The translations under genes and the position numbers were made by a program. The notes under the pieces were generated by a model. That model did no database searches, had not been told where the DNA came from, and saw nothing but the letters and a program-made list of their open reading frames with translations. A stretch of DNA of 64,000 nucleotides from Eledone cirrhosa (Eukaryota), in NCBI GenBank assembly GCA_964016885.1, contig OZ024741.1:190030001-190094000 (forward strand). Direction: 5' to 3'. How positions within the stretch are numbered: the first letter of the stretch is position 1; the number at the start of each line of letters is the position of its first letter. Shown here piece after piece: positions 4,120 through 64,000 of the stretch.

Positions 4120-4175
4120 TCTAAGATGAATTTAATGCAGGTAAGGTATAACTGTAGTTATTCCTTACCTACATT

Positions 4176-4585
4176 AATGATCGAAAGAATACGATCACGA
4201 ATACAAGCGGCCGAAATGGGATTCCTCCAAAGGATCTTTAGATTAACGTTACTTGATAAAGTGTGTAGATCGGAGATCAGAGAATCACTCTAGGTAGAGC
4301 TGGTACTTCTCCGAATTGAGAGATCACAGCTCTGATACTATGTGGTTAGAATGTTTCAGGAAAGAATCGCTGGACAGATTTTACAGGCAAAACCAACAGG
4401 TAGGAGACCCAGGGGTAGACCCTGAGCAAGATGGTTAGACAACATCCATGAGCTTGGCTGGTCATGCTTGGGGATCCAGTCGGATCAGTTGGAGGCAGTT
4501 GCTTCTGACAGTACCCGCTGGAGGGAGTGTTTGAGGACTCTACCCTCATGACCCTCTCAGGAATAAGTGAGTGAAGAAGAAGAAG
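4176..4585 (+). mobile_element. Rex3/Expander-like RTE 3' fragment (also ~26677-27010 and ~33557-33935)
   Basis: RSRIQAAEMGFLQR...VEPLLL.I.RSQ...PTGRR..GRPRAR remnants and a (GAA)n tail in three copies. Confidence 0.75.
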
Positions 4586-12947: not shown

Positions 12948-13247
12948 GAACCCATCTTACCGAACCACGTATCAAAATCTTGCCGAAATGGAGGTTACAC
13001 AAAGTGAAAGGGTCTAACCTGCAGATGACATGTGTAGTCAACACACCCGTACCACCAATTTTTATGAAATGGCTGTTTATTAGTATTGACCGCAATGACA
13101 CATTGGCCTGTAGCAGGGGAAATAACTCTGTTTCCCTTAATATCAAGAAGTTGAAAATACTGGATGCCGGTGCCTATATATGTGTTGTGAAACTAGCTAA
13201 CGGCAAGACTGTTAACAAAGATGCTGTAGTTTTCATTCTTGATAAAG
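12948..13247 (+). CDS. Internal exon encoding an immunoglobulin-like domain of the LDLRAD3-like receptor
   Basis: Poly-T tract + ccag acceptor and AAAG|gtactc donor; 300 nt, phase 1-1. Translation contains the Ig signature LQMTC...KW...VSLNI...DAGAYIC. Phase-compatible with the downstream LDLa exon; the linkage itself is inferred. Confidence 0.8.
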
Positions 13248-13353
<106 letters not shown>

Positions 13354-15571: not shown

Positions 15572-18500
15572 TCTCTATATATATAAAACGGTAGGTGTCT
15601 GTGTGTGTGTATGATTTTTATGCATTTCCACATTTCTCTACCGATTTTGATGATTTTTTTTTTCCAATGTGCTCCAAATTTACCAGGGCAGGTCAACGCG
15701 TAATTATTTTTGCCAAAAATTTCCTGCTTCTATGAAAAAAAATCAATGAAACTAAATACATGCTTCATTCCTCTCACTACTACCATCAAAAATATATGAA
15801 ACTACACAAATATTCAAAAGCAACAGATGAATTTATAAAACAACAAACGTAACAATAACAACGCTTAAGCATTTATTTACATGATACTCAACAAAGACAT
15901 TATATTTTATTGTTGTCCTTTTTGTAATTTTCTTTCTTTGTTTTTCTCAATATGAGACAAAAAATTAATGAGAAAACTTTTTCCTCGGGATTCTATTCAA
16001 AGTCGGGACAATTATTGCTTTTGGTCAAGAGAAGGTCATGAAGCAAAAAAATGTTCAAATCAATCAACAATAAGGGCAAAAATCGATCATGATCATTCCC
16101 CCTCTCTATAATTTAACTGCTTTACTCTCTCTGTCGCTCTTCACTCCTTATATGACAACACTGCAGAGAGAGAAACAATGTATATGATCAAATGAAGCGT
16201 TCCGTATATTCCCCCTCTCTATAATTTAACTGCTTTACTCTCTCTGTCGCTCTTCACTCCCTATATGACAACACTGCAGTGGAGCGTTCCGTATTGACAT
16301 ACGGCTTATCTGGGGCATTTTCAATCGGCTTATTGCAAATAACAACCCGCAAAATAACACTTCATATAACAGATTAATGCTATAGACATATGAATTGGAA
16401 TGTAACCCATGAACTTTTTCCTGGGCAAAATTATTCGAACAGAGATAACCTCATTGCCAGAGTTTTCAGACTGAAACTGGCTAAACTCATGGCTTTAATC
16501 AAAAAGGTCAGGTATTTGGGGCTGTAAAATGTGACATGTTCACCGTCGAATGGCAAAAATGAGGGCTGCCACATGCTCACATTTTGATTTGGTTAGCTGA
16601 TAAAATCAATTCAAATACCATAGACAGCTTCATTTCGGCTGAAATCTCTAACCCAGCAACTGACCAGGAATTACATGACATCGTCAAAGCTAACATGGTC
16701 CGTGTGCGTCGGGTCCTAATGAGCATCACACGTGTCTGAAAGGGGGGGGTCGTGCAGTAAGGGATACTCAAAATAATTTGTTGACCAGACTCAGACTGGT
16801 GGCGATGGGTAGCCCCTGTACAGGCGGAGACGGCCCGAGAACGGTGGCTTCACCACAACAGTAAGGGGAGGTCAAGTCGACAATAGATGGGTGGTCCCTT
16901 ACTGCTCGCTTCTCTTGAAGATGTTCAACTCCCACATCAACGTTGAGTTTTGCAACTCCATCTAGTCAATAAAATACATATGCAAATATGTAAATAAGGG
17001 CTCTGATGCCACAATGTTCGCATTTCAAGCTGAAAATAGCAGGGACGAGGTCACAATACCTGGCGGGGCGGTACATCAGTAGCAATGAAGCTTTTTGGTG
17101 CCTATTTAGTTTACCCCTACACCAACGTCACCCCGCCATCGTACAGCTTGCGGTACATTTGGAAAATGGACAAAGGGTTTACTTTACAGACTAAACCGCC
17201 GCCAAGATGGCCGCCGATCTAAAAGAGACCACTCTGACGGGTTTCTTCAAACTTTGCCAGTTCGATACATTTACGCAAACAATTGTGTACTCCCAGGTTC
17301 CATCCTACTTTATATGGTCGAAAAACACTTGGGTGCGGAGAAAGTCAGGTCAGGCTGCTGAAAGATATCCTGGTGTAAAATTTGACAGCTGTCTTGGAAG
17401 GGTTTACACTGTGACCCCAAGTCAGCATGAGTGCTTTCATCTCCGCCTTCTTCCGCATGAAGTTGTAGGCCCACAAAGTGTTCAGGACATCAAAACTGTT
17501 GATGGAGAAATATGTGATACGTACCGGGAAGCCTGCTTTAAGCGAGGTCTTTTGGAAGATGATTCGCAATGGGATTCCACTTTAGCAGAGGGTGCTTTGT
17601 TGAAATCAGCTAAAAGTCTACGGGAACTCTTTGCCATTTTGCTTCAAAAGTGTGAATTTGGTGATCCCAAATCTTTATGGGTCAAGTATAGAGACTTCAT
17701 GTCAGGACTTCCTGCGCCTGGCTCATCTGCAGTATACTTAAGTGGAAGTTGGTTACAGCGACATTATCTACAACTGGGCACTCATTGATATCGAGGACGC
17801 CCTCCTCGACATGGGTGGGAGTGAGTTGGCGACGTATGGCTTGCTGTCAACCGTCAGAGAGGAAGCTAACACGTTGGCCCCGGATTTGTTGCGGGAAACA
17901 GCATATGACATCGAATCTCTTTCCCAATACTTAGAGGAAAATGAGCCCAAATTTCTGTTGGACCAAGGGTTGGACTATTTAACTATCATTGATGCGGTTC
18001 AAAATCAAACTGAGGGTATTTACTTTTTCGATGCTCCTGGGGGTACCGGAAAAACTTTTGTAACGAAATTGATTCTCGCTAAGATTCATCAGGAGAATAA
18101 AATTGCGTTGGCCGTTGCATCGTCCGTGATTGCTGCTACTTTGCTGCCGAGAGGCAGGACAGCACATTCAACCTTTAAACACCCCTTGGATTTAGTAAAA
18201 TCTGAGACACCAACATGCAATATCAGCAAGAGCTCACACGAAGCTCTGGTTCTCAAAAAATGTTGCCTCATTGTTTGGGATGAGTGCACAATGGCACACA
18301 AGGGTGCCCTTGAGTCATTGGACAGGACCCTGAAAGACAGAGATTCTACAGCTCCTATGGGTGGCGTAACCCTTCTGCTATCAGGGGATTTTCGGTAAAC
18401 GCTGCCTGTCATCCCCAAAGGAACAAGAGCTGATGAAGTGCGTGCCTGCCTTAAATCGTCCATGTTGTGGTTCCAGGTGAAGAGTTTGTACCTGAGCACA

Positions 18501-34921: not shown

Positions 34922-35322
34922 TGGGCTTCCTTGCAGTTTCTGTCTACCAAACTCACAAGGCATTAGTCAACCCAAGGCAATAATAGTAAAGGTACACTTT
35001 CCCATAGCACTACATAATGGGATTGAACCCAAGCTTCTTAACCACAGATTTAGACAGAACAGTCAGTACTCAAGTGGAGCTATTGACTTCCCAGATGAGC
35101 TGGAGGCCTGCATCACACATTCTCACACTTTATAAACTGCTCTGATGGGCTGAGAACCCACATCTGGCTTACATACAATCCTGTTATACATCTAGATTAA
35201 AATATTTTTAGACAAGTAGTAGTAAATATATTTAAACAGGTGGCTGTAAATATTTTCAGCTATTTTGCTTTCATAAACTGAAATAAAGAAGAGAAAAGGA
35301 CTTTCAGTCCCTGCCAATTTAC

Positions 35323-35472
35323 CTGGTACATCTAAGAGCTCTTCAATCTTACGAACATATTTCTGTGCATTCTCAGGAAGATCTTCAAATTTGCGAATGT
35401 TTTCTGTCGAACTTAACCACCCTGGTAATGTCAAATATTCTACTTCTACTCGCTTCAAGTCTTCATCAGATG
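35323..35472 (-). CDS. ADSS: Adenylosuccinate synthetase exon
   Basis: ttcccag acceptor and gtaaat donor, 150 nt. SDEDLKRVEVEYLTLPGW...FEDLPENAQKYVRKIEELLDVP. Confidence 0.97.
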
Positions 35473-36595
35473 CTGGGAAAAAACAAAATTTTTTAAATTA
35501 ACAAAAATATCTTTTAATGCCCAAAATATCTTTTAATGAGGGCAGCTCGGATTAATCACAATCTACATATATATACCTCTTCCCTTTCTATTGAGTGATT
35601 CCCTATAATAAAACAGCCTACATACAGCCATGACTGGAAAGAAAAAAAAACATCTTTTTTGCTATTATTATTATTATTATTTTGAGGCAGTTGGCCCCTC
35701 TCACTTGCATTATTTTATTCATACGGGTGAGCTGAGAAAAATCGAGTATAAGAAGTTTCAGATGTAGTGTGAAAGAGTGACCACTGCATTGATATGAACC
35801 TGTGATGCATATGGATGATGATTGTTGAGTAAAGTGCCAAGAAATCCCAGTGGAAGGTAGCTGCAGTAGAGGAAGACCAAGGAAGGCTTGAATAGAAGTT
35901 GTGAGAGCTGATATCAGACCACTGAAGATCATACAGATGATGAAGGAATGCAACAATTGGAGAGATAATATGCTGAAAAAAATCTCATCCAATACATGTA
36001 AGCATGGAAAAGTGAGCGTATGATGTGAAGGAGGAGGAACCTCTGGCAATAAAAAAGAATCCTTTCAAGTGTTCAAGAAATGTAACCAGAGAAAGGCTTT
36101 AAATGAGCTAATTAATAGGATTGCCAGTAAGAATTCTTCAGACAGTCTTTGAAATTTTAAAAAAAAAACTCTTGTTGGCTAACTAGAACTGTTGAATAAA
36201 AATAACCAAAGAAACAAAAGCTTTGACTGAAACAACGAGTATTTCTGTCAATAAAGTGTCACAAATCTAAATGGTCTTCACTTTGGTTCTGAATAGTTGC
36301 AATTATCTGAAGCAATTACAATCAAGATTAGGATTAGGTTAACAAGCATAGTGAAAGTAATGAGAGGATTCCAACATGAACATTGCCTTTACATTGCCAT
36401 TGGAAAACACCAGTGGTGTGAAGAGGTAAGATTTATATGTATGAGCAAATGCCAGTCTCTCCCCTATCAAAAAGGTTTCGTTCAGGCTTGCCACTTGGAA
36501 AGGAACTTTGTAGATGAAGATCCAGTCTCACAAGACATAACAGAGGCCCCACTTAAACAAAGGGGAGAAAATTACTAAATATTAGAAGTAAAATA

Positions 36596-38990: not shown

Positions 38991-40254
38991 TAAAAGAGAC
39001 CAGTGGCTAGTGTTTGGCAATTGAAATCAGAGATAATATATAATTGAATTAATTTGCAGGGAGGTGTATAAGCAACAGTGTAGGGAGTATAGCCTATTTG
39101 TTGAGAGAAGTATACAGCCACTGGATGGGTAGAGGGTGGGGGATAATACACTGTGTCGGAGGAGGATAATACACTGTGGGAACAGATAGTTAATTTTAGG
39201 GGAAGTGTAGTTAGGAGGAAGGGGGCAATTTGGTCATATGATCAAATCGTAAGCCGGCAACAAGGCAGGTAACTCATTTTCCACCACTCTTTTATATCTC
39301 AATTGGGGAATGTTCCAAAATATAAATGGGATTCAGCTGCAAACACACTAGAACTTGGTAGGCAATAATAATTAACTCTTGTTATTGTATTTCTAATGTA
39401 AAACACTGCCTATGAATATATTGAAAATAATCAACCAGTATTCAAGTTAGTGAAGAATTGTCAACCATGGCTAAATTCCTTTTCAAAGTTAACAGAAAAA
39501 TTTGTAAGAAAATTTCTCAACTATATTTGAAGCTAAATTAAACTAAAAAAAAAAAAATACACACACATGCATTGTGTTGTGTATCCTGGTTTTTAGAATA
39601 ACTATACTGTAAAAGACGACTAAAAGAGTTGGCACCAAGAAAGTTGTAAAATATGCCATGCCAACATGGAAAAGTGGATGTAAAAATGATGATAATGATG
39701 CAAGTACCTCTCCAGAAAAATAACGTAACCTAGCCATGTAAAACTAGATGAAAATCAGTAAAACCATAAAGCCACAGTCCTTAACCCTTTTGATATCAAA
39801 CCCCCTGAAACCACTGCTGGTTTTATAATTTTATATTTATCCCATCAAAATTTTATGAAAGAATTTTGGTAAGTTACGTTCCAAATACCATTTTAATAAT
39901 GAGAAAGTTGTCATATTACAAAGTTTTTCCAAATTGAAGACTAATTACTTCTGAAATCCACCCATATCAGCAAAGAAAACAAATGTGATAATGATGATGG
40001 TGGTGGCACTCCCCTCCCCTGTTCCCAGAATCCCATACAATAGTGTTCAGCATATAAACAACCAAATACCTACAATGAATTTGAAACCCTGACCTTTGAG
40101 TAAGATAAGATTTCCATATGGTACAGTAATATCCATTATCTATACCTCTTCCCAGCTAGGTGAACCAAGATAATGTAGAATATAGTGTACTGGCTCAGAA
40201 ACAATGAATTACCTTCCCCACTGAGGTGTTAAGTGAAAAAGAGGGTCAACTTAC

Positions 40255-40379
40255 GCTGAGAAGCCATTGATCATGTGAGAATATCGGAGCATAACCATAT
40301 CAATCCAACCAATTCGGCGTATCCTTCCAGTCGTCACACCAAACTCAGCACCACGTTTTTGCAACAGATCACCCAGTTC
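40255..40379 (-). CDS. ADSS: Adenylosuccinate synthetase, fourth-from-last coding exon
   Basis: Reverse strand ttcacag|...|gtaagt, 125 nt. [41 protein letters not shown] contains the conserved E(F/Y)GVTTGRxRRxGW motif. Confidence 0.97.
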
Positions 40380-40690
40380 CTGTGAAGAAACAACCATTGA
40401 ATTTATATAACAGAAACATCAACAAATCTTAACTATAATAAAGGGAGTGCAGGACAGCATCCAGAAGATATTTTTTAATCCTGTTAGTAAAATAAGTTGG
40501 ATTACTTTGAATAAATAATAAATGAATATTACATAATTTATCTACTAAATTTCGTAACATGATTAAACTTAAATAATTTTATTGCATATTTCAAGATTCA
40601 CTTCTTTTAAAAGATTCAAATTTCAATACTTCCGGTATATCGCCACCACCACCACGTACGTATGTGTATGTGTATATATATATATATATA

Positions 40691-41318
40691 TGGATGTGTA
40701 ACAGTAATATACGTGAACGACAAAGCATAAATGAATTGAGAGAGAGACTGAGCATAAGAGGAATCAAATGCTATGTGCAGGAGAGACGGTTGCGCTGGTA
40801 TGGACATGTGATGCATATGAAGGATGACAGCTGCATAAAAAGGTGCAGAGCACTAGAAGTTGATGGAAACCGCGGAGTGGGGAGATCCAAGATGACCTGG
40901 GATGAGGTGATAAAAGCCGACCTTACCCAATTACACCTCTCAAAGACAATGACACACGACCGTGACTTCTGGCGTCACGCAGTAATACAGAGTACCCGAC
41001 CTCCCATGGGTACATGCTGAAGCATATAAACAATATGCCCCCACACCGCAAGGTGGTCGCGGAGGTGCCACGGCAAAAAAGCACCCAGCCCACACTGTAA
41101 AGTGGACGTGTAGGCGCCACGAAAAAGCACCCAGCACTCACTGTAAATGAGGTTGGTGTTAGGAAGGGCATCCAGCTGTAGAAATCAAGCCAGATCAGTT
41201 CCTGTATGAGCAAGGCATGGTCAGCCGACCAGACACTGCACACAACAGGACAACCCGTCTAACCCATGCTAGCGTGGAAGCACGGACGTAAAACGGTGAT
41301 GATGGAGATGATGATGAT
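40691..41318 (+). mobile_element. RTE LINE 3' fragment
   Basis: WMCNSNIRERQS...RRLRWYGHV coding end, 3' UTR and (GAT)n tail; preceded by (TA)n. Confidence 0.9.
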
Positions 41319-41325
41319 ATATATA

Positions 41326-43600
41326 TGTTCTACAACGCGAGGTGTTCAGGATTGCTAGGCATTGTGTCAAGGAAAACAGTGATATTGTCGGGGAGAAGTG
41401 TGTCCTTAATGATGATGGTGTACTTGCCATCACTGATGCTGATAAGAAGGTAGCTTGGAAGTGTCACTATGAAAGGCTACTAAATGAGGAGAATAATTGG
41501 GAGAAAGACAGTTTCCCCCACATCGACCCAATAGAGGGACCAGCAGTGCAAGTTGAAGGTAGTATAATAAGTAAGGCGATCAAAGATATGAAGACGGGCA
41601 AGGCGGCCGGGCCTTCGGAAATAGTTGCTGAAATGCTGAAAGCATCTGGAACAGTGGGACACACTATGGTCACTCAGATAGTAAACCAAGTCATACAGAA
41701 GGGGGTCGTTCCAAAGAACTGGCGCAGCAGCATCATCATTAACTGCTACAAGGGTAAAGGTGATGCCCTAGATAGGGGAAACTATAGAGGCATTAAATTA
41801 ATTGACCAGGTCATGAAGGTCACAGAAAAAGTAATAGCGCAACTAATCAAAGAGCGAATTGATCTAGACGAAATGCAGTTCGGGTTTGTATCAGGTAAAA
41901 GTACAACAGACGCTCTCTTCATTGTACGACAACTACAGGAGAAGTACCTAGCTAAAAGTAAACCCCTATACTTAGCATTTGTTGACTTGGAGAAAGCCTT
42001 TGACAGAGTACCCCACTCGATTATCTGGTAGGCCCTTAGAAAACTAGATGTTGATGAATGGCTTGTGAGAGCTATAGAAGCCATGTATAAAGAAACAGTC
42101 AGCAAGGTTAGAATTAACAACGAATATAGTGAAGAGTTTAGCGTAAAAGTTGGCATTCATCAGGGCTCCGTTCTTAGTCCCCTACTATTTATTATTGCCC
42201 TTCAGGCTATAACAGTGGAGTTCAAGACCGGCTGCCCATGGGAACTCCTATATGCAGATGATCAAACGCTCATAGCTGAATCATTGGCTGAACTAGAGAA
42301 TAAATTCCAAACATGGAAGCATGGCCTAGAATCAAAAGGCCTTAAAGTTAACTTGTCTAAGACTAAAGTTCTAGTTTGTAGGAAGGAAAATAGGGCACCG
42401 GTCCCATCTGGGAAATGGCCATGCTCAGTGTGTAGGAAAGGAGTAGGCAGAAACTCCATTTTATGTCCCAAATGCAACGTATGGGTGCATAAAAGATGTA
42501 GTGGGATCACAGGTAAGCTAACTAAGAATATAGATTTTATATGTGGCCGGTGCTCTGGTGCAATAAGTAGCAGCAAGTGCCCCAAAATAGGAGCTCATTC
42601 CATTGCACAGATGGTTCTATAGAAATAGTGAACAGCTTCCGTTACCTGGGTGACAAAATCAGCAGTGAGGGAGGGTGCTCTGAAAGTACAGTAGCCAGAG
42701 TCAGAATGGGATGGAAAAAGTTCAGAGAGCTTATACCACTATTGGCCGCTAAAGGGTTCTCTCTAAAAATGAAAGGCAGGCTGTATGATGCCTGCATACG
42801 AACATCAATGTTACATGGCAGTGAGACCTGGGCATTGTGTGCCGAGGATATGTGCAGAGGATATGGGCAGACTGGAGAGAAACGAAGCTTGCATGCTCCG
42901 CTGGATGTGTAATAGTAATATACGTAAACGGCAAAGCATAAACGAACTAAGGGAGAAATTAGGAATAAGAGGGGTCAGATGTTTACTCGAGAGAAGACTA
43001 CGTTGGTACGGTCACGTGATGCGCATGAAAGACGACAGCTGTATAAAAAAGTGCAGGGGGATAAAAATAGATGGTAGCCACGGAGTAGGCAGACCCAGAA
43101 AAACCTAGGACGATTTGATAAATTCCGACCTCACACACTTCCACCTCTCCAAGACAATGTCACTGGACCGAGATCTTTGGCGCTACACAGTTATACAGAA
43201 GACCCGCCTAGCCTAAGTACAAAGCGAAACCTAGTCAGTAGGCACCTCTAACAAAATACACCCCCGTCCCACTACCCCCACCCCATCCACACCACCCCCT
43301 TAAATGTGAAGTTATGTTGGTACCACAACATCCAGTCCGAAACAAATGAGATCGTGTAGGTGTCACGACAAAAAAACACAAAGTCCACGCTGTAATGTGG
43401 CCGTGTAGGTAACACGGTAAAAACCTCCCAGTCCACACTGTAAACGTGGTTGGTGTTAGGAAGGGCATCCAGCCGTAGAAAACCCGCCAGACCGTCCTGA
43501 GCAAGACAACCAATCTTGCCTCAAGTGGGACAATTCCCGTCCAGACCCATGCTAGCGTGGAAGATAGACGTTAAACGATGATGATGATGATGATGATGAT
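41326..43600 (+). mobile_element. 5'-truncated RTE-clade LINE with RT and internal Cys/His finger
   Basis: RT motifs NYRGIKL, QFGF, FVDLEKAFDRV, HQGSVLSPLLF, LYADD; C-terminal RRLRWYGHV and GRPRKT; (GAT)n tail. Contains stops and frameshifts. Confidence 0.93.
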
Positions 43601-44654: not shown

Positions 44655-44951
44655 ATTATAAAATATATATATATATAATAAAATATATATATATAATAAA
44701 ATATATATATATAATAAAATATATATATATAATATAATATATATATATATATAATATAATATATATAATATATAATATATAATATATATATAATATATAT
44801 ATAATATAATATATATAATATAATATAATATAATATATAATATAATATATATAATATAATATAATATATATATATAATATATATAATATAATATAAATAT
44901 ATATAAATATATATAATATAATATAAATATATATAAATATATATAAATATA

Positions 44952-47390
44952 TCTGATCATGCTATGATCATTGCCAATCTGGCACTTGAGGGCAGCAACA
45001 AAAACCAGGGCCATCTCCAATCTGCTTGCTTTGATTGGAAGAGGGCGGATTGGAACTTGTACTGCACTGAGCTACAGCGCCCAAACTGGCATGAGATGTA
45101 TAACTCTGGAGATGTGAACTCTATACTCCAGAGCATCCTGGACTCAATATGGATAGCGTGTGCAGCATCAGTGCCACGGAAGCGGAAAAATAACCACCCC
45201 AAAAGTGCAATCTGGGAAACTTCAGCGGTCCGACTTGCCAGGAAAGAACGTCGGAACGCTGAACGGGAATATAAACTGCATAGAACAGATGCCAACAGAA
45301 AAAAGCGGAATAAATCTTCTAACCATCTCAAGCAAGTGACAAAGAAGGCAGTGCTTGAATTTGAACAGTGCATCGCAACCAATCCTGACAGTAAGGTGTT
45401 CGGGAAATATGTTCATTCAAAGCAGAGACCTCACTCTCCAGTTGGTCCTCTTCGCAATCCCCACACAAGCCAGATCACTGACGATCCCAAGGAATGCGCA
45501 GAAATCATTGCTGAGTGCTATGCAAGTATTTTTACTGTTGAAAACCAGAATGTACCATCTCCACCATCTCTAACATCAAATTCCATAACAACTATGGAAT
45601 TTACACCTGCAATGTTGCGACGTCACCTTAAGAATAAGCGCAACTATGCCTCCCCTGGTCTTGATGGTGTGACATACCTGCTTCTCAAACGTGGCAGGGA
45701 TTTCCTTTTGCGCCAGCTTTCTTTTTTCTTTCAATACTGTCTCAGCAATGGTGCTACTCCGGAGCAGTGGAAAACTGCCAGTGTCATTCCCCTGTTCAAA
45801 AAGGGCAACCGCATGTCACCTGTCAACTACCGTCCAGTCAGTCTTACAAGCTGTATGGCCAAAATGATGGAATCCTGTGTCAGAGAAACACTTTGGAACT
45901 TCTGGAGCTCTCACAGCCTCATCCGGCCCTCACAGTTTGGATTTATCCCTAACTCCAGCTGCTGTGATCAGCTTATCGAGTTTCTTGAGGACATCACCCG
46001 GATCACTGACAGCGGCTCATGGGTGGATGTTGTTTACCTTGACTTTGCTAAGGCTTTTAATTCTGTGCCACACAAAAGACTTATGGCAAAACTCTCTGCA
46101 ATGGGTGTGAGGGATGATCTTTTCGACTGGCTGAAATCCTTCATTCTCAGCCGAAAGGAAGTAGTCACGGTTCTAGGACAGCATTCTTCACCATATGAGA
46201 TGTCATCTGGTGTACCACAGGGATCTGTTCTTGGTCCTCTTTTGTTTGTGGCATATATTAATGACATAGATGCCAACTTACAGAATGCCACGGTACTAAA
46301 ATATGCAGATGACATCAAGCTGTACCTTGAAATCAAAAGGACTGATCCTGATATTTACAACTCTTTCCTACAATCAGACCTGGACACAATGCAGCAATGG
46401 ATCACAGACTGGCAACTGAAGCTGGCTGTGGACAAGTGTACCACCATGCATTTTGGAAGGAAAAATCCAGCGTCCACATACTCCCTCCACAACACTGACA
46501 TCAAAAAGTCCTCTTGTGAACGTGACCTGGGCATTACTGTCAGCAACGATTTGCGTTGGACAAAGCATGTCTCTAAGATTGTCAAGAAGGCCGAGGGTGT
46601 CTTGGCATCACTCAGCAAGACCTTTGTTAGCCGCTCTCCAGCCATCTATTTAAAACTGTATACAGCTATGGTGCGACCACACTTGGAATTCGCATCATCA
46701 GTCTGGAACCCCTATCTTGCTCGGAACATTGACCTCCTGGAAACTGTTCAGAGACGTGCAACCAAGCGCATACCCTCCATCAGACACCTACCATACTCTG
46801 AACGCCTTGCTTCCCTGGGCATGGATTCATTGAAGCTCCGACGTCTGGCAATGGACTTGGTGAATACCCACAAAGTTTTTAACCATCTCGCCAACTGCAA
46901 CCCTGAGCGCCTCTTTGATCTCCATGTGTCTAACACACGTGGACATGCCTACAAGATAAGAAAACAGCACCGCTCCCATGACTTTCGCAGACATTTTTTC
47001 ACGCTCAGAGTTGCTGAAGCATGGAACAAACTGCCTGCGTCAATTGTTAGCTGCCGAGACACTTCATCCTTTAAGACACTCATGCTTCCCAAAATACGCC
47101 AAAACTACACCTGATGTACCCCTTCCATACACATGCACACATGTGTGTATCATGACTCGTGCACTGTTCATTTTACTGATGTTTGTGCATTACCCTATGT
47201 ACTGTACATGCACTTTTTTGATGAGTTGTGGTGCACCTGGGCACAATATTTCGTTATTGTTATTATATCATGACTCATACACTGTTTATTTTCCTGACAT
47301 TTGTACATTATTCTATGTACTATACATGCACCTTTGATGAGTTGTAGTGCACCCGAGCACTGTACACAATAATTTCATTATTATTATTAT
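44952..47390 (+). mobile_element. 5'-truncated CR1-type LINE with an uninterrupted 716-aa RT ORF (44964-47114)
   Basis: NYRPVSLTS, QFGF, VYLDFAKAF, SGVPQGSVLGPLLF, YADD, RPHLEFASSVWNP, TRGH, WNKLP. 3' UTR has a duplicated ~120-bp unit and an (ATT)n tail. No endonuclease domain present. Confidence 0.95.
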
Positions 47391-48950
47391 AATATATATA
47401 TATATATAATATATAATATATCATCATCATCATCATCATTTAACGTCCGCTTTTCCCTGCTGACCTGTTAACAGACTCCTAACTCCTTTTTTGAATGTGT
47501 GTGTATACATATAGATATATATATGTATGTGTGTTTATATATATATCTGTCGATGCGACCAGATTTCAATACAGCAACAACATATATATATATATAAGGG
47601 TTAAAATACTGGAGCGTGTTGGAGTTAAACACCCTCTTCGTATTATAGAAATGACAGTAAAAGGTATAGCTCAATGTAGTTAAACAGAGCCGAAGAATTA
47701 TGAAAGTAAAACAAAGAAGCCTTCAATACATAAACTTTAATTACTTAAACTATAGCTAATATTATACTGCCTTATTGGATATTTTAAATATTGTTAATAT
47801 TAATTTATCAAATAGGGTTTTCGAGTCATTTACCGGGGTTATTTCCTAAGTTTTTACTTAACTGCATGTGAGACCTAAATGTATACTTTTGTTTTTGTTT
47901 TTTAATTTCCGGTTGATCCTATTTATTTATTTTACATTTTTTATATTTTATATTTTGTTTGCAATACTACTGTGCATTATATTTACTGTCTGGCCCTTAC
48001 TCACTCATCCACATACATGTCCGTTTACCAACCTTGTAATTATAAGTAATTATATATTATATTATGTTAATTATTTTATATTATGTTATGTTAATTATTT
48101 TATATTATATTATATTGTATTTGTTATTGTAATATTGATCCTTATTACTTACCGTTAATTATATGTAACATTATGATATGTTAAACTTTATATATCATGT
48201 AAGATGTTTATATTTTTGTACCATCATAATTTTTGGGTATTGTACAATTTATTTTTCCTCACCTACTCTGTAACTCTATATGAATTGATTTGTTAACTTG
48301 CATGCCATTATATATTGTATATTATAAATGTTAGTATATTATTATTATAGTATTATTGTGACATCTATATTGTTTGTGTAAATTAACCGGAGATTATCTA
48401 TTCTATTATATTATATTATATAGTATATAATTGTATAGTTTATTATATATTATATGTGCTACTTATAATAATATCATATTATTACCTCATGTATATTGGG
48501 TATATGTATTATTATTACTATTATTATTTTTATTCCTATCATGCTTATTTATATTTAAACTCTTAATAAGGTTTAATTTGTGCAGTTGAAGATGGATATG
48601 TGTATTGATGTATGTGTATGTGTGCGTACGTGTGCGTACATATATACATATGTATATTGTACCTTTTGATTTTTATTGTAATTTTAATATTGGTAAAGGT
48701 ATATTATATTATATTACATTGTATTATATATAATTCCTGCTCTATATAACCTCCTTTGTTTAGCTCTAGGGTTTTTTTGCTTTGGACTATATTTGTAATA
48801 TGGTTCTAAATGTTATACACCTCCTTAGTAATTTTTATTATATATTTTTATTATATATTTTTACCCATAATCTTGCAATACTTTAGTGTATGTACACTCC
48901 ATATTCTTCGGAGTTTCCGGCTTGTATTGGCCGATAATACTTCTTGTTGT

Positions 48951-49002
48951 TTTAATTGCCCTGATGAGTCCTGAATAGGACGAAACATTGTTGGCTAATA
49001 AA
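48951..49002 (+). ncRNA. Minimal type I hammerhead ribozyme motif
   Basis: GCC-CTGATGA-GTCCT(GAAT)AGGAC-GAAA-C(ATT)G-TT-GGC: intact CUGAUGA and GAAA cores, 5-bp stem II, short stem III, stem I GCC/GGC. Confidence 0.85.
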
Positions 49003-49158
49003 GACTTTTGATGTATTGAAGGCTTTGTTTTACTTTCATAATATATATATATATATATATATATGTCTCAGTCGATACGACCAGATTTTAACACAGCAAC
49101 AACAGCGACAGTAACAACATCAACAACATTGCCTGTGTTGAATGTATGTGTATGTTTG

Positions 49159-49191
<33 letters not shown>

Positions 49192-49565
49192 ATGTATATG
49201 TATGTGTATATATCACACATGAAGCGAACAAATTTCAAAATTTCAACCCACCAAATTTCAACACCAACAACAGCACCATTGTCTGCAGCAGTAGTGAAAT
49301 GAACAACAACAACAACAGCAGCAGCAATAGCAACAACAACAACAACAACTGCCACCATCAATCAGGCCTTAAAAACAACTATAATACTAAATAACTATTC
49401 TGTTCTTGGCACTGGGGCAGCGATTGTCCCAGCGAATTGCTGGTGCCTTGTTTTGGGGCCCGGAGAGTGGAGAGCCATTGCTCTTTGCTGTAAAGCAAAG
49501 AATTATTATTATTATATAAAAACTGAACTGGAAAATTCAACAGCTGACATGATTTTGTATCAGTA

Positions 49566-49603
<38 letters not shown>

Positions 49604-50243
49604 TGGGGTGGGTGGGTGTGTGTGTGCATGAGTGTTGGTGTGTGAGTGGCGTGCGTGTTTGTATGCATGTGTTGGTGTGTGTGTGTCAACTGTTTTTTTT
49701 TTATGTTTTTTTTTTTTTTATTACCATTCTGTAAAATGGAGGGGTAGAGAGGGCCTATGAGTCCAGTAAGACATTCTCTAGTGCTGGTTGCACAAATAAA
49801 AGCACCCAGTTCATGCTGTTAAGTGGCGCTGATGTTAGGAAAGGCATCCAACCAGTGTATCAAAGCCAGAACGATTATAAGCACACCAACAATTATGTAT
49901 ATATTCTATTCTAGGGTGGGTAAAATTCCCAAGATCCATGGACGAGTTCTCTCCAGAAGTCTGTCACGCATTATCGCTGCCATTTGTTGTTGCTGCTACT
50001 GTTGTTCATTTCACTACTGCTGAAAACAATGGTGCTGTTGCTGGGTTGAAATTTTGAAATATGTTCGCTTCGCGTGTGACACACACACACACACACACAC
50101 ACCACAAGCAATGGTGTTTTTGCTGTTGTCGCTGTTGTTGTACTTGTAGTTGTTGCTGTGTTGAAATCTGGTCGCATCGACATATATATATCATTTCATT
50201 TTACGTCCACTTGTCCCTGCTTGCAAGGGTGGGACGGGAACTG

Positions 50244-50278
<35 letters not shown>

Positions 50279-50280
<2 letters not shown>

Positions 50281-52460
50281 GGTTAAAACACATAAACAAG
50301 GACCCGATTTGAAAATCAGGCCCATTGTCTCTAGCGTGGAGGGCCCACTCTACAAAATATCGTGGCTGCTCTCCGCACTACTGAAACCCATTCTACACAC
50401 ACTACCGGCCCACGTCTGCAGCTCAAAGGAGGCCTTGGAGCGACTACACCATCTGGCGCCCAACACCAGAAAGGACAACGGTTATGCCTTCAGTCTTGAT
50501 GTGGTCGCCCTTTATACCTCCGTACCAGCATCCCCAGCTGTCGACCTGTTGACCGAACGAGTCCGAGCATCTAACTTACACTGCTTCGGACTCGCACACA
50601 CGGACATCCACCAACTCCTCTCCTTCGTTGTGGATAATGCACTCTTCAATTTCCTCGGCCACACGTACAAACAAATCTCTGGGCTACCTATGGGCTCTAG
50701 TCTGTCCGGCATACTTGCGATCTCGTACATGGACCACCTGGAACGCAAGGCACTCAATACCTGCCAACCCAACGCCGTCGCCTTCTACTCCAGATACGTT
50801 GATGACATCCTGATACTTCTTCCCGGGAGATGGCGAATGAAATTCACCAAATCTTCAACGATACTGACCATCACGTCGATTTCACCATCGAACACCCAGG
50901 AGAAGACGGGTCACTCGCCCTCCTCGACTTCCGTATCAACATCTCGGAAGAAGGAGACATAAACACCACCTTCTACCGCAAAGCAGCGTGCAATGACTTA
51001 TTTGTGCATTACAACTCAGCCCTCCCCAACAACGCTAAGAGAGGCTATGTCCTAAATGAACTGACACGGATCACTAATAGATGCAGCGACCCGATGGGTG
51101 GTCTCACCCATACCACGCAATTCCGTAATCTACTCAGATCTAATGGTTATCCCAAGCGACTGATTAACGGAATTAGAGACCCCAGACCCAATAGACAGAC
51201 ACCCACTAGAAACTTAAAAGCAGGTGCTTCTTTAAAATCCCCCACCTGAGTGAATATACCACGAACGCCATCCGCAGGGCCATACGGACGGAGGGACTTG
51301 ACATACATTTGGCCCACACAGGACCTTCGCTGCGAAGATGCCTCTCCAACAAACCCGACGAGTCAGATGGGACGTGTTCCCTCAGCAACTGCCCGATACG
51401 GGGAGCAGATTGCCTACGCACCTATGTCGTATATAAGATTCAATGCGATAAATGTAACAAGTTTTACATAGGTAGCACCATCCGACCCCTACATGTTCGT
51501 ATCAAGGAACATATCAACACCAACGCATCTTCCTTCCGTAAACACATCCTTAAATGCGGAAACCCACAGGGTAGACCCTTGGTCACAGTGCTAGCGACTG
51601 AACGCAGCATCGGATCCTTAAGGATAAAGGAAGCACTTGTTATTAAGAACCTCAGACCCCCACTTAACAACCGGGCTGAGAGAAATGAGCTGACATGGCT
51701 AACTTAACCATAGTGACCATTCACAGCTTATGGCCTGCTATCTTCACACACACGCACGTATATGCATACCCATACGCATACACACACACATGTTTTTACA
51801 ACCTACCACCTTTCACACCCTTTGATTTCCAGCTTCTACAGCCCACTATCTTTCACACACACACACACTCACACATACACACAGTTACACACACATGTAT
51901 ACCCATACGCTTACACACACACACATCTATATTTATACACGCACACATGTTTTACAACCTACCACCTTTCACACCCTTTGATTTCCAGCTTCTACAGCCC
52001 ACTATCTTTCACACACACATATACACACTTACACTTATACACACAGTTACACACACACATATTTACACACACATATTTTACGGCTTTCACACGCTAGCGC
52101 ACCCTCTTGATTTAACCCATTTGGTCAGTAGCTTTTGCCACAGCCTATCACGCGCACTCTTTCCCTCGTTTAAATTTTAAATAATTTTCTCCCCATAACG
52201 GCATTCCTGTCTTAACGACATCACAACTTTCTCCGCTTGGCCTGTTCCCCCCCCTTTTGGAACTTTCCCCCGTTGATGGGCGTGAGCCCGAAATATTGGG
52301 ATTAAATCTCCACTACGGTAACCCTTCTACCTTTGTTTTGTTTTTGTTTTCATCTTTGTCTCTCTCAATTTTCACTTTCTCCTGTTTCTCCTATCTATCA
52401 TTCACTTCCTACCTCGAGATTTCCCTCTGCATTGTTGTGGCTTTCTTAACTACGTATTTT
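50279..52460 (+). mobile_element. Penelope-like retroelement (RT + C-terminal GIY-YIG endonuclease), 5'-truncated and frameshifted
   Basis: KTHK..IRPIVS, SLDVVALYTSVP, GLPMGS, RYVDD, NGYP; then CSLSNC linker and VVYKIQCDKCNKFYIGST.RPL..RIKEH. Frameshifts at ~50825 and ~51210. The 3' boundary is approximate. Confidence 0.93.
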
Positions 52461-53175: not shown

Positions 53176-53585
53176 AAACAAATTCACAGTGTACACACGT
53201 ATATACACACCCACACATATATATATATATATTAAGAAATCCATACAATATAGATATATAATATAATACAATATATATAATATAATATATAGATATATAA
53301 TATAATACAATATATATAATATAATATATAGATATATAATATAATATATAGATATATAATATAATATAAATATATAATATAATATATATAATATAATATA
53401 TATATAATATATATATATATAATATATATATATAATATAATATATATATAATATATATATAATATATATATATAATATAATATATAGATATATAATATAA
53501 TATAAAATATATAATATAATATATATATAATATATATATAAATATATAATATATATATATATATAATATATATATAATATATAAT

Positions 53586-53616
<31 letters not shown>

Positions 53617-54002
53617 ATATATATATAATATAATATATAATATAATATATATATATAATATATATATAATATAATATAATATAATATATATAAATAATAT
53701 ATATATAATATAATATAATATAATATATAATATAATATAATATAATATATATATAATATAATATATATATAATATAATATAATATAATATATATAATATA
53801 TATATAATATAATATATATATAATATAATATATATATTATATAATATATATATAATATAATATATATATAATATATATATATTATATATATTATATATAT
53901 ATATATATTATATATATATTATATTATATTATATTATAATATATAATATAATATAATATAATATATATAATATAATATATAATATAATATATATAATATA
54001 TA

Positions 54003-54043
<41 letters not shown>

Positions 54044-55368
54044 TATATAATATAATATATATATATAATATAATATATATATATAATATAATATATATAA
54101 TATAATATATATAATATAATATAATATAATATATATAATATAATAATATAATATAATATATATATTATATATAATTATATATATATAATATAATATATTA
54201 TATTATATATATTATATATTATATTATATATATATTATATATATATATATTATATATATATTATATTATATTATATATATATTATATTATATATATATTA
54301 TATTATATATATATTATATTATATATATATATATTATATTATATATATATATATATATATATATTATATTATATATATATATTATATTATATTATATTAT
54401 ATTATATATATATATATATATATTATATTATATATATATTATATTATATATATATTATATTATATTATATATTATATTATATATTATATTATATATATAT
54501 ATATATTATATTATATATATATATATTATATTATATATATATATATTATATTATATATATTATATAATTATATATAATTATATATATATAATTATATATA
54601 TATAATTATATATATATATATATAATATAATATAATATATATATAATATATAATATAATATAATATAATATATATATAATTATATATGTATATAATATAT
54701 ATAATATAATATATATATAATTATATATAATATAATATAATTATATATATAATATATATATAATTATATATATTATATATATAATATATATATAATTATA
54801 TATATAATATATATATAATTATATATATAATAATATATATAATAATATATATAATATATATATAATATATATATAATATATATATAATATATATATAATA
54901 TATATATAATATATATATAATATATATATAATATATATATAATAATATATATAATAATATATATAATATATATATATAATTATATATATATAATAATATA
55001 TATAATAATATATATAATATATATATAATATATATATAATATATAATTAATATATATATATAATATATATATAATATATATATATAATATATATATATAA
55101 TATATATATAATATATATATATAATATATATATAATATATATATATAATATATATATAATATATATATAATATATATATATAATATATATATAATATATA
55201 TATATAATATATATATATAATATATATATATAATATATATATATAATATATATATAATATATATATAATATATATATATAATATATATATATATAATATA
55301 TATATAATATATATATATATAATATATATATAATATATATATAATATAATATATATATATATATATAT

Positions 55369-55568
55369 NNNNNNNNNNNNNNNNNNNNNNNNNNNNNNNN
55401 NNNNNNNNNNNNNNNNNNNNNNNNNNNNNNNNNNNNNNNNNNNNNNNNNNNNNNNNNNNNNNNNNNNNNNNNNNNNNNNNNNNNNNNNNNNNNNNNNNNN
55501 NNNNNNNNNNNNNNNNNNNNNNNNNNNNNNNNNNNNNNNNNNNNNNNNNNNNNNNNNNNNNNNNNNNN
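55369..55568. other. Assembly gap (200 N)
   Basis: Run of exactly 200 n; a fixed-size scaffold join. Confidence 0.99.
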
Positions 55569-56253
55569 TATATTATATATATATATATTAATATATATAA
55601 ATAATATATATATTATAATATAATATATATATATATATATAATAATATAATATATATATTATATATATATAATATATATAATATATATAATATTAATATA
55701 ATATATATATATATAATATATATATATATAATATATATATATAATATAATATATATATATAATTATAATATATAATATAATATATATATATAAATATAAT
55801 ATATAAATAATATATATATATATAATATATAATATAATATATATATATAATTATAATATATATATATAATATATAATATATATATAATATATATATAATA
55901 ATATAATATATATATATATAATAATATAATTAATATTATATAATATAATATATATATAATATAATATATAAATATATAAATATAATATATAATTATATAT
56001 ATATATAATATAATATATATAATATATATATATATATAATATAATATATATAATATAATATAATATATATAATATAATATATATATATATATATTATAAT
56101 ATATATATATAATATAATATATTATATATATATATATATATAATAATAATATTATATATATATTATATATAATATATATATATAATATATAATATTATAT
56201 ATATATATATTATATATATATTATATTATATATATATTATATATATATTATAT

Positions 56254-56285
<32 letters not shown>

Positions 56286-56295
56286 ATATATATAT

Positions 56296-56392
<97 letters not shown>

Positions 56393-57201
56393 TATATATA
56401 TATAATATATATATATATAATATTATATATATTATATATTATATTATATTATATATATATATTATATATATTATTATATATATATATTATATTATATATA
56501 TTATATATATATATTATATTATTATATATATATATTATATATTATATATTATATATATTATATATATTATTATATTATATATATATATATATTATATATA
56601 TTATATATATAATATAATATAATATATATTATATTATATATATATATATATATATATATTATTATTATATATATTATATATATATATATAATATAATATA
56701 TATTATATTATATATTATATTATATATATTATATTATATATTATATATATTATATTATATTATATATATTATATTATATATATTATATAATTATATATAA
56801 TTATATATATATATAATATATATATAATATATATATAATATATATAATATATATATATAATATATATATATAATATATATATATAATATATATATATAAT
56901 ATATATATAATATATATATAATAATATATAATATATATATAATATATATATATAATATATATTATATATATAATATATATATATAATATATAATATATAT
57001 ATATAATATATATAATATATATAATATATATAATATATAGTAATAATATAATATAATATGTATATAATATGTATATAATATATTATAATATATAAATATA
57101 ATATATATATAATATATCTATAAATAATATATAAATAATATATAATATATAATATATCTATATATAAATATATAATATATATATAATATATATATAAATA
57201 T

Positions 57202-57233
<32 letters not shown>

Positions 57234-57309
57234 ATATATATATATATATAATATATATATAATATATAAATATAATATATATAAATATATATATAATATA
57301 TAATATATA

Positions 57310-57500
57310 AATAATTGTTTCTACTTTTGGCACAAGGCCAGCAATTACCCAGTGCATTACTGGTACTTTATTTTATCGACCCCGTAAGGATGAAAGGCAA
57401 AGTCAACCTCGGCGGGATTTGAACTCAGATCGTAAAGGGACGTAACTATGCTGGAAAGCATGGCGTCCGACCCTCTACCGATACTGCCAATCCACCGCCC
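57310..57500 (-). mobile_element. Full-length family A SINE inside the A/T array
   Basis: Near-consensus copy from GGGCGGTGGATTGGCAG to GTAGAAACAATTATT, flanked only by A/T simple sequence. Confidence 0.92.
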
Positions 57501-58408
57501 TATATAATATATAAATAATATATATATAATATCTATATATAATATATATATAATATATATATATATAATATATAATATATATATATATAATATATATATA
57601 TATAATATATATATAATATAATATATAATATATATAATATATAATATATATAATATAATATATATATAATATAATATATATAATATATATATAATATAAT
57701 ATATATATAATATAATATAATATATATATAATATAATATATATAATATAATATATATAATATAATATATAATATAATATATATATATAATATATATATAA
57801 TATATATAATATATATATATATAATATAATATATATATATATAATATAATATATAATATAATATAATATAATAATAATATAATATAATATAATATATATA
57901 TAATATATATATAATTATATATATATATATATATATAATATATATATATATAATATAATATATATATATAATATATATATAATATATATATATATAATAT
58001 AATATATATATATATAATATATAATAAATATATATATAATATAATATATATATATATATTATATATATATAATATAATATTATATATATATAATATATAT
58101 ATAATATAATATATATATAATATAATATATATATAATATAATATATATATAATATAATATATATATATAATATATATATAATATAATATATATATAATAT
58201 AATATATATATATAATATATATAATATATATATATATAATATAATATATATATATATAATATAATATATAATATAATATATAATATAATATATAATATAA
58301 TATATATATAATATATATATAATATATATATATAATATATATATAATATATATACATATATATTATATATGTACATATATATTATATATACACACTATAT
58401 ATACACAT

Positions 58409-58450
<42 letters not shown>

Positions 58451-58512
58451 TATATATATAAATATATATAAATATATATATATAAATATATATATATAAA
58501 TATATATATATA

Positions 58513-58598
<86 letters not shown>

Positions 58599-58750
58599 AA
58601 TATATATATATAAATATATATATATATAAATATATATATATAAATATATATATAAATATATATAAATAAATATAAATAAATATATATATATATATATAAA
58701 TATATATATAAATATATATAAAAAAAAATCTATATATAAATCTATATATC

Positions 58751-58789
<39 letters not shown>

Positions 58790-58856
58790 CTTCATATATA
58801 TATATATATATATCTTCATATATATATATATATATATATATATCTTCATATATATC

Positions 58857-58887
<31 letters not shown>

Positions 58888-58907
58888 CTTCATATATATA
58901 TATATAT

Positions 58908-59612
58908 ATCTTCATTCTTCTCACCATTTTTATTCCTTAGTCCATTCATTCTCTATCATTTTTTCCCCGAATCCAATCTTTGCCTTTCTACTCGATACTC
59001 TGTCGTATTTTCCAAAACAAATCTTGTATTTTTATTTTATGCTTGTTAATTATGCCCAAAATACGGGGATCTTATTTAAACCTTAACCTTCTCTTATTTA
59101 AACCTTACCTTGTCGCTAACTACCCCAACCTTAATTCTGTCGTATTTTCAAAACAAAACTCCTTATACATTTTTAAACATATTGTTATGCTGGCTAAATT
59201 ATGCCCCTAATTTCAAGGACTGTATTTAAACTCTCAACCTCTGCTCCCTTCTATCTTCTAAACCCCCCCCCCCCTTTACATCATGCTGGTTCGTGGCCAC
59301 CCCCACCCCCCCTCTATCACCATATACAAGATAAACCCTACAAGTACGAAAAAAATCAGAACCGCCAAATTCCTATTCCGGGATGGCTGCTTACATGGTA
59401 TAATGTAACGTACAAATATTTCTTCATTCTTCTCACCATTTTAATTCCTTAGTCCATTCATTCTCTATCATTTTTTCCCCCCGAATCCAATCTTTGCCTT
59501 TCTCCTCGATACTCTGTTGTATTTTCCAAAACAAATCTTGTATCTTTGTTTTATGCTTGTTAAATTATGCCCAAAAATACGGGGATCTTATTTAAACCTT
59601 AACCTTCTCGCT
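58908..59612. repeat. ~190-bp direct duplication with ~512-bp period
   Basis: TCTTCATTCTTCTCACCATTTT...AAACCTTAACCTTCTC at ~58908 and ~59421. Confidence 0.8.
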
Positions 59613-61483: not shown

Positions 61484-61508
61484 AATATATATATATATAT
61501 AAAATATA

Positions 61509-61563
<55 letters not shown>

Positions 61564-62386
61564 AAATATATATATAAAAATATATATATATATATAAAAT
61601 ATATATATATATATAAAATATAAAATATATATATAAAATATATATATATATATATAAAATATATATATATATATAAAATATATATATATATATAAAATAT
61701 AAAATATATATATAAAATATATATATAAAATATATATATATATATAAAATATAAAATATATATATAAAATATATATATAAAATATAAATATATAATATAT
61801 AAAAATAATATATAATATAAAATATATATATATATAAAATATATATATATATAAAATATATATATATATAAAAATATATATATATATAAAATATATATAT
61901 ATATAATATATATATATATATATAAAATATATATATATATATAAAATATAATATATATATATAAAATATATATATATATATATAAAATATATATATATAT
62001 ATAAAATATATATATATATAAAATATATATATATAAAATATATATATATAAAATATATATATATAAAATATATATATATAAAATATATATATATAAAATA
62101 TATATATAATAAAATATATATATATAAAATATATATATATATATATATATAAAATATATATATATAAAAATATATATATATATATAAAAATATATATATA
62201 TATATATAAAATATATATATATATATATAAAATATATATATATATATAAAATATATATATATATATATAAAATATATATATATATATAAAATATATATAT
62301 ATATATATATAAAATATATATATATATATAAAATATATATATATATAAAATATATATATATATATATATAAAATATATATATATAT

Positions 62387-62425
<39 letters not shown>

Positions 62426-62620
62426 TATATATATATATATAAAATATATATATATATATATAAAATATATATATATATATATAAAATATATATATATATA
62501 TATAAAATAATATATATATATAAAATATATATATATATATATAAAATATATATATATATATAAAATATATATATATATATATATAAAATATATATATATA
62601 TATAAAATATATATATATAT

Positions 62621-62659
<39 letters not shown>

Positions 62660-62968
62660 TATATATATATATAAATATATATATAATATATATATATAAA
62701 ATATATATATATATATAAAATATATATATATATATATATAAAATATATATATATATATATATAAAATATATATATATATATATATAAAATATATATATAT
62801 ATATATATAAAATATATATATATATATAAAATATATATATATATATATATAAAATATATATATATATATATATAAAATATATATATATATATATATAAAA
62901 TATATATATATATATATAAAATATATATATATATATATATATAAAATATATATATATATATATATAAA

Positions 62969-63000
<32 letters not shown>

Positions 63001-63291
63001 TATATATATATAAAATATATATATATATATATATATAAAATATATATATATATATATATAAAATATATATATATATATATAAAATATATATATATATATA
63101 TATATAAAATATATATATATATATATATAAAATATATATATATATATATAAAATATATATATATATATATATATAAAATATATATATATATATATATAAA
63201 ATATATATATATATATATATAAAATATATATATATATATATATAAAATATATATATATATATATATATAAAATATATATATATATATATAT

Positions 63292-63357
<66 letters not shown>

Positions 63358-63375
63358 TATATATATATAAAATAT

Positions 63376-63423
<48 letters not shown>

Positions 63424-63890
63424 TATATATATATATAAAATATATATATATATATATAAAATATATATATATATATATAAAATATATATATTATATATAA
63501 AAATATATATATATATATATAAAATATATATATATAAAATATATATATATATATATAAAATATATATATATATATATATAAAATATATATATATATATAA
63601 AATATATATATATAAATATAAAATATATATATATATATATAAAATATATATATATATATAAAATATATATATATATATATAAAATATATATATATATAAA
63701 ATATATATATATATAAAATATATATATATATAAAATATATATATATAAAATATATATATATATAAAATATATATATATATAAAATATATATATATATAAA
63801 ATATATATATATATAAAATATATATATATAAAATATATATATATATATATAAATATAATATATATATATAAAATATATATATATATAAAA

Positions 63891-63922
<32 letters not shown>

Positions 63923-64000
63923 TATATATATATATAAAATATATATATATATATATAAAATATAAAATATATATATATATATATAAAAGATATATATATA
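61484..64000. repeat. [(TA)nAAA]m compound microsatellite
   Basis: Variable (TA)n runs punctuated by AAAA to the window end. Confidence 0.95.

Follow-up and report, generated by a model that had tools for sequence, protein, structure and literature searches.

The segment at 47597..49042 of the window (the whole 64,000-nt stretch analyzed, from contig OZ024741.1 of the Eledone cirrhosa assembly GCA_964016885.1) can be read with high confidence as a single 5'-truncated and 5'-inverted copy of an autonomous, coding Penelope-like element (PLE) of the Hydra clade, lying in a (TA)n tract and probably a recent insertion made by the reverse transcriptase (RT) and GIY-YIG nuclease of the element itself. 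The window copy encodes nothing and matters little, the genome holding thousands of such fragments from a retroelement of known type. It does carry a caution, as PLEs with long AT-rich 3' untranslated regions (UTRs) leave many hammerhead fragments without an ORF, which can pass for non-autonomous families. The value of the parent family is modest: it is a young family with numerous copies that keep an open frame, and no longer Hydra-type element was found here or in the descriptions consulted. Its two sharp termini permit a clean count of PLE reverse-transcription priming.

Layout of the segment

The segment is flanked by (TA)n target tracts at 47582..47596 on the left and 49043..49064 on the right, both read from the sequence. 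Relative to a natural full-length copy (L066, the reference), the window copy consists of positions 4606-4743 in inverted orientation followed by positions 3314-4643 in direct orientation. The inverted piece comprises a 100-nt tail running from the long terminus (47597..47696, minus strand, reference 4644-4743) and the last 35 nt of the element body, which end before the hammerhead (47697..47731, minus strand). The inverted and direct pieces overlap by 2 nt (AT) at a genome-unique junction, 47730..47731, from which the distal ∼1.3 kb of the ∼1.9-kb AT-rich 3' UTR, or pseudo-LTR, extends to the short terminus (47730..49042, plus strand). In full elements, the 100-nt tail sequence is found directly upstream of the 5' UTR and ORF.

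An earlier note on this DNA described an AT-rich, ORF-less segment between TA tracts, and this description holds: the GC content is 24.9%, and the segment harbors no credible ORF, the longest stop-to-stop frame being 98 aa and of low complexity. The inverted terminus was also recognized, as a recurrence of 49011-49042 at 47697-47731. The recurrence exists, with a 3-nt indel, but the inverted piece is all of 47597-47731, because 47597-47696 is the inverted form of the 100-nt tail that trails the terminus elsewhere. The interpretation of this piece as an inverted partial terminal repeat of PLE type was right. The substitutions that separate the window copy from the nearest copies compared amount to 0.9-1.7%, so the insertion is young. 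A target-site duplication is unreadable within (TA)n. The ∼43-nt flanking repeat (47539-47581 and 49062-49104) was considered as a duplication and rejected; its two parts are 83% alike including TA and 95% complementary to 50149-50191, and the repeat therefore belongs to an older inverted-repeat element.

The hammerhead motif

A minimal type I hammerhead motif occupies 48955..48999 on the plus strand, with a predicted cut after 48992 and a stem III that forms a near-palindrome with a 1-nt loop (ACA-T-TGT). Its parts lie where they had been quoted: CTGATGA at 48961-67, GTCCT at 48968-72 opposite AGGAC at 48977-81, GAAA at 48982-85, CATTG at 48986-90, GTT ending at 48992, GCC at 48958-60 opposite GGC at 48993-95, and AATAAA at 48997-49002. 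The Rfam Hammerhead_1 model matches 48955-48999 with 31.2 bits (E 6.9e-5), slightly below the gathering score of 34, and a strict hammerhead descriptor matches none of 5000 block-shuffles of the element. Across 10 aligned copies, the core is invariant and the stem cells pair in 99% of cases versus 21-44% in slid controls. Covariation, proposed earlier as a check on the stems, is present but thin in these 10 copies, with a single stem I pair changed on both sides, in two rows that belong to one family. In 14 of 16 copies selected for their ORF, hammerhead identity to the window is 93-96% where UTR identity is 52-92%; in the two most distant copies, the values are 73% and 46%. The reading as a minimal type I hammerhead was right, and, to judge from its conservation, the motif is likely to be functional in the PLE family.

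The AATAAA (48997..49002, plus strand) overlaps the 3' strand of the extended stem I and reads AGTAAA in three of the 10 aligned copies. No terminus in the sampled copies has a poly(A) end, and nothing supports AATAAA as a poly(A) signal.

The nucleotide at the predicted cleavage site is T, C, A, and G in 73, 22, 5, and 0 copies, respectively, by hand count of the first 100 of 2,093 copies listed. Stem III is self-complementary (duplex −4.7 kcal/mol), and its 1-nt loop repeats the pattern of the published Hydra hammerheads given in rows of File S2 of PMC8557442. In axolotl retrozymes, such hammerheads are described as cleaving better as dimers (PMC7229834; PMC6155905). The catalytic fold is absent from the minimum-energy folds of both monomer and dimer; tandem transcripts would probably be cut as a double hammerhead or with the help of protein.

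Two pieces seemed to begin close to the predicted cut, but nested genome counts show no accumulation of 5' truncations there. The counts fall from 2,366 to 2,184 to 2,093, such that 2,093 of the 2,184 copies with the bases just 3' of the cut also span it, and the loss across the cut site (2,184 to 2,093) is smaller than the loss over the neighboring 4 nt (2,366 to 2,184). With no excess of copies starting at the cut, the template was uncut or re-ligated, and the RNA reverse-transcribed into DNA was intact through this site.

Two more hammerhead motifs, of other families, are present in the window at 12727 (minus strand) and 13515 (plus strand); the former has paired stems and recurs in several locus flanks, and the latter looks decayed. 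Minimal hammerheads of seven or more additional families, most having a palindromic stem III, were encountered by chance in the flanks of loci such as L018, L028, L037, L063, L064, L072, L077, L085, and L106. The genome seems rich in hammerhead-bearing PLEs. Rfam microRNA matches in the window are far below threshold and were dismissed as microsatellite noise.

The parent element

Longer stretches around copies of the segment run upstream into RT and GIY-YIG coding sequence. Among the 29 other loci fetched first (one doubly fetched locus is taken once), 11 have a match to the window that ends at 47730 with shared sequence continuing beyond; the match ends there because the window switches to the inverted piece. 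The segment had been taken for a self-contained element of ∼1.45 kb, which fails: upstream of 47730, further 3' UTR and then the ORF are found in other copies.

The full unit of ∼4.74 kb consists of a short 5' UTR, an ORF of ∼896 aa, the ∼1.9-kb AT-rich 3' UTR, in which the hammerhead precedes the short terminus by ∼50 nt, and the 100-nt tail. L066 is a natural copy of 4,743 bp, with the ATG at 76, an ORF of 896 aa, the hammerhead at 4559, the short terminus at 4643, and the long terminus at 4743. Another copy, L031, displays in order an inverted partial copy, an upstream pseudo-LTR with hammerhead, the tail, the 5' UTR, the ORF with one frameshift, the 3' UTR, the hammerhead, the terminus, and TA. 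A genome search with the N-terminal 221 aa returned 18,800 candidates, of which 150 were scored; stop-free frames of at least 840 aa number about 40 among these by hand count. In 19 of 20 loci picked for long frames, a stop-to-stop frame of 844-970 aa contains YRDD.

The ORF product is a telomerase-like RT followed by a C-terminal GIY-YIG nuclease. When the structure predicted from 97 sequences (mean pLDDT 81) is compared with the PDB, telomerase RTs take the first seven places, in line with a PLE. Pfam finds no RT match in the PLE protein and places GIY-YIG below threshold (E 0.003-0.015), and a sequence search of the PDB with the same protein gives nothing meaningful (one match, E 0.47). Between subfamilies, the core ORF has a dN/dS of 0.12-0.21 in 8 of 14 comparisons; values among the six closest copies are 0.28-0.58. 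Two N/S-rich inserts of ∼145 and ∼45 codons, predicted to be disordered, are nearly neutral between subfamilies (dN/dS 0.57-0.84), and they account for the length of the ORF, ∼896 aa as against ∼700 aa in most relatives. Among the 120 of 380 matches listed, the nearest proteins are 34-51% identical in the best local alignment and mostly ∼700 aa long.

The closest outside relatives, P0004, P0005, and P0007, carry N-rich inserts at the same two positions, and the inserts may hence mark a sub-lineage. A sister Hydra family, found in L077 (3003-5537) and L078 (2933-5467), shares 61% protein identity and has an 829-aa protein and a 2.25-kb 3' UTR. With at least eight copies that have identical scores and 844-aa open frames, it has probably been active very recently.

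Clade assignment and relation to known elements

Craig et al. (2021, PMC8557442) define the Hydra clade by a C-terminal GIY-YIG domain, RWK and DKT motifs, a CxCX5C linker, CxxC and CxH flanking the catalytic E and N, the lack of CCHH, a canonical hammerhead, and (TA)n insertion; a length generally <3 kb is descriptive rather than diagnostic. The parent family has a single ORF with the RT preceding a C-terminal GIY-YIG nuclease, of which the window copy retains nothing. Among 19 long frames, DKT (DKG changed to DKT) is found in all 19, RW in 18 with R (or C) rather than K as the next residue, CxCX5C in 18, a GIY-YIG-type motif in 18, and CxxC before the catalytic E in 17; CCHH is absent, with only one Cys inside the GIY-YIG core. 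A hammerhead with a canonical core lies near the 3' end, and insertion is into (TA)n. The length is at odds with the description, at 4,743 bp in L066. In a by-eye comparison with the published alignment (PMC8557442), the motifs follow the Hydra rows and not those of Penelope/Poseidon, Nematis, or Neptune. Judged from its motifs and this by-eye comparison, the parent family belongs to the Hydra clade.

Membership in another PLE clade (Naiad, Neptune, Nematis, or Penelope/Poseidon) or in a new one is very unlikely. Naiads also use (TA)n targets and occur in cephalopods (PMC8557442), but they combine an N-terminal endonuclease and a CxC domain with the lack of a canonical hammerhead, whereas the nuclease here is C-terminal and the hammerhead core canonical. 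DKT, CxCX5C, and the absence of CCHH rule out Neptune, Nematis, and Penelope/Poseidon as these are defined in PMC8557442. The unusual length and the inserts could suggest a separate clade; against this, the protein aligns end to end with its ∼700-aa relatives once the two inserts are removed. Naiad had been the initial guess from the RT motifs and was dropped when the nuclease proved to be C-terminal.

The Hydra clade is already known in a cephalopod through Hydra-1_Obim of Octopus bimaculoides, an element of 2,507 bp in (TA)n the hammerhead of which has other stems (PMC8557442 supplement). The earlier suggestion of a family undescribed in cephalopods therefore fails at the level of the clade, though the difference in hammerhead stems makes the present element a different family. 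A search of the literature found no paper that names the parent family. In Octopus vulgaris, 31 recently active Penelope-like families are reported without clade names (PMC13282606). The parent family may already be in some repeat library, or it may be unnamed; it departs from described Hydra elements in length only.

As described in PMC8557442, the Hydra clade, including Hydra-1_Obim, has in common with the family studied here the single ORF with RT and C-terminal GIY-YIG, the same motif set without CCHH, the minimal hammerhead near the 3' end with a near-palindromic stem III, the (TA)n target, 5' truncation, partial tandems, and an inverted 5' copy. The unit of ∼4.74 kb contrasts with 2.1-2.7 kb in the Hydra families listed there as complete, and the ∼1.9-kb 3' UTR, the 100-nt tail, and the two disordered N/S-rich inserts set it apart from described Hydra elements. 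In-frame N-rich inserts in the RT-endonuclease ORF, and a tail on one of two inverted pLTRs, are also described in the Penelope elements of Adineta vaga (Gladyshev and Arkhipova, PMC3846280); these are low-copy families of a rotifer and belong to another clade, with inserts of up to 1.5 kb as opposed to ∼145 and ∼45 codons.

Copy number and autonomy

The last 163 nt of the element return 1,804 candidates in the 3.0-Gb genome, and all 40 scored are 97-100% identical. The 32-nt hammerhead core has 2,340 exact genome matches and its reversed control none. A 29-nt pattern spanning the inversion junction matches the genome once, at the window itself. A sample of 40 insertions was taken as the first 40 of the 81 clusters formed by the first 100 exact hammerhead matches, all on one contig. 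The 5' ends of these insertions are spread between reference positions 1 and ∼4520, and none shares the breakpoint of the window copy.

The earlier note inferred a non-autonomous ribozyme-bearing family. That a retrozyme-like element or deletion derivative was amplified as a 1.45-kb unit by PLE RT is now most improbable, since the junction is found only once in the genome, which refutes a shared unit. It is true that ORF sequence is present in just 11 of the 40 sampled insertions and absent from 29, and that animal retrozymes have been described as non-autonomous PLE derivatives (10.64898/2026.07.22.740005). The ORF-less majority is accounted for by 5' truncation within a long 3' UTR, which measures 1.7-2.3 kb across ORF-selected copies, and the scatter of 5' ends in the 40 loci argues against a fixed unit. 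Of the 81 clusters, 62 are single, 17 are inverted pairs, and two are direct pairs spaced 4,671 and 4,757 bp; none has the 150-450-bp tandem arrangement of retrozymes. Loci that look divergent represent subfamilies in which longer members extend to the ORF, and 18 such loci contain no shared internally deleted subfamily. Jumps from ORF to terminus in L084 and L110 have different junctions. No full-length copy in the loci read has an ORF unconnected to a 3' UTR of the window type. Outside the 40 sampled loci, the genome may contain a rare deleted subfamily.

The homologs are thus the ordinary 3' ends of coding PLEs, which makes the window copy a truncated PLE. The note was probably correct in proposing mobilization by PLE RT. 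Animal non-LTR retrozymes (Cervera and de la Pena 2020, PMC7229834; Li et al. 2026) resemble the segment in their type I hammerhead, low GC, and link to PLEs; as described in PMC7229834, they are tandem non-coding repeats of 150-450 bp with one hammerhead per unit, whereas the window copy is a one-off truncation of a coding element.

Termini and a proposed mechanism of insertion

The family uses just two end sites, which are separated by 100 nt and each followed by TA, and 5' truncation varies among copies. In the 40 sampled copies and the window, all 54 outer termini give way to TA runs, some beyond a short duplication. Of the sampled insertions, 24 have a single terminus (13 short, 11 long), 15 carry a terminus on each strand, and in one no terminus was detected. 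Each of the 15 inverted insertions combines one long and one short end (13 scored by script and two read from the output). In another 39 loci, the two outer ends are resolved on opposite strands 14 times, always as a mixed pair; in L033 the long and short end types share one strand, and in L065 a single end is resolved. Counting the window, every inverted insertion resolved at both ends (30 of 30) pairs a tailed end with an untailed one, versus about half expected if each strand picked its site independently.

A possible basis for this pattern is provided by PAc, the Poseidon element of Anolis carolinensis, studied in vitro by Frangieh et al. (2024, PMC11167929). In that account, both target strands are cut and extended, the tail is set by two internal start sites of the RT, and hammerhead cleavage, which protein assists, is dispensable for insertion. 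The mixed ends fit two RT start sites like those of PAc. By analogy, a tandem transcript would be bound by the PLE protein, both strands of a TA tract would be nicked, and reverse transcription would proceed from two fixed internal sites 100 nt apart, one per DNA strand. For the window copy, the cDNA from the long site would have halted after ∼135 nt and that from the short site after ∼1,313 nt, the two being joined over the 2-nt overlap.

The resemblance to PAc, as described in PMC11167929, includes two fixed termini that define an optional tail, AT-rich targets, and copies that read through the hammerhead cut site. PAc belongs to another clade and has a tail of 30-40 bp, compared with 100 nt here; its start sites are inside the ORF, whereas here they are upstream of it, and the hammerhead here lies far upstream of the start codon.

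A stricter rule, in which each start site is used once per inverted insertion and one RNA is primed twice by a protein dimer, with each site and each target strand serving a single time, has roughly even chances of being correct. If true, this would constitute a PLE form of twin priming, left unresolved by the in vitro work on PAc; the strictness and the single-RNA reading would be new, a tail at one end only being already known qualitatively. The dozens of open-frame copies would then offer a ready model for the unstudied Hydra clade.

Genomic context

The insertion lies antisense to the adenylosuccinate synthetase gene (ADSS), as had been claimed. Exons on the minus strand are found at 35309-35497 and, nearest to the insertion, at 40254..40385, and the next upstream exon is past the end of the window, which makes the insertion intronic as well as antisense; ADSS pre-mRNA would consequently stay uncut. 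Host co-option of the copy, e.g. for the processing of antisense RNA within this ADSS intron, is scarcely credible in spite of the intact hammerhead core within a housekeeping gene, as an intact core is expected without selection at ∼1% divergence from sister copies, the copy is one of at least 2,340, it is antisense with no second hammerhead nearby for a double hammerhead in cis, and it bears changes private to it, in loop II and close to the terminus.

The window harbors several other repeats and coding remnants. A 725-aa open frame at 44937-47114 (plus strand; Pfam RVT_1, E 2.7e-36) ends ∼480 bp upstream of the PLE copy and represents a 5'-truncated LINE, presumably CR1/L2-like. Further RT fragments lie at 41318-42028 and 50279-50959. 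An old MITE-like inverted-repeat element with arms of ∼260 bp, 78-83% complementary, spans 49061-50191, and a 43-nt terminal piece of it (47539-47581) is on the opposite side of the PLE copy. A PIF1-like helicase fragment at 17742-18395 (plus strand; Pfam E 1e-39) is probably a Helitron remnant, and an exon-like frame at ∼12950-13250 (plus strand) has, by eye, an immunoglobulin-type C...DxGxYxC pattern. Open frames of 321-354 aa lie within a 55-bp tandem array at 6473-7648. Two (AT)n arrays are very long, at 53217-58909 (∼5.7 kb) and 61485-64000 (∼2.5 kb).
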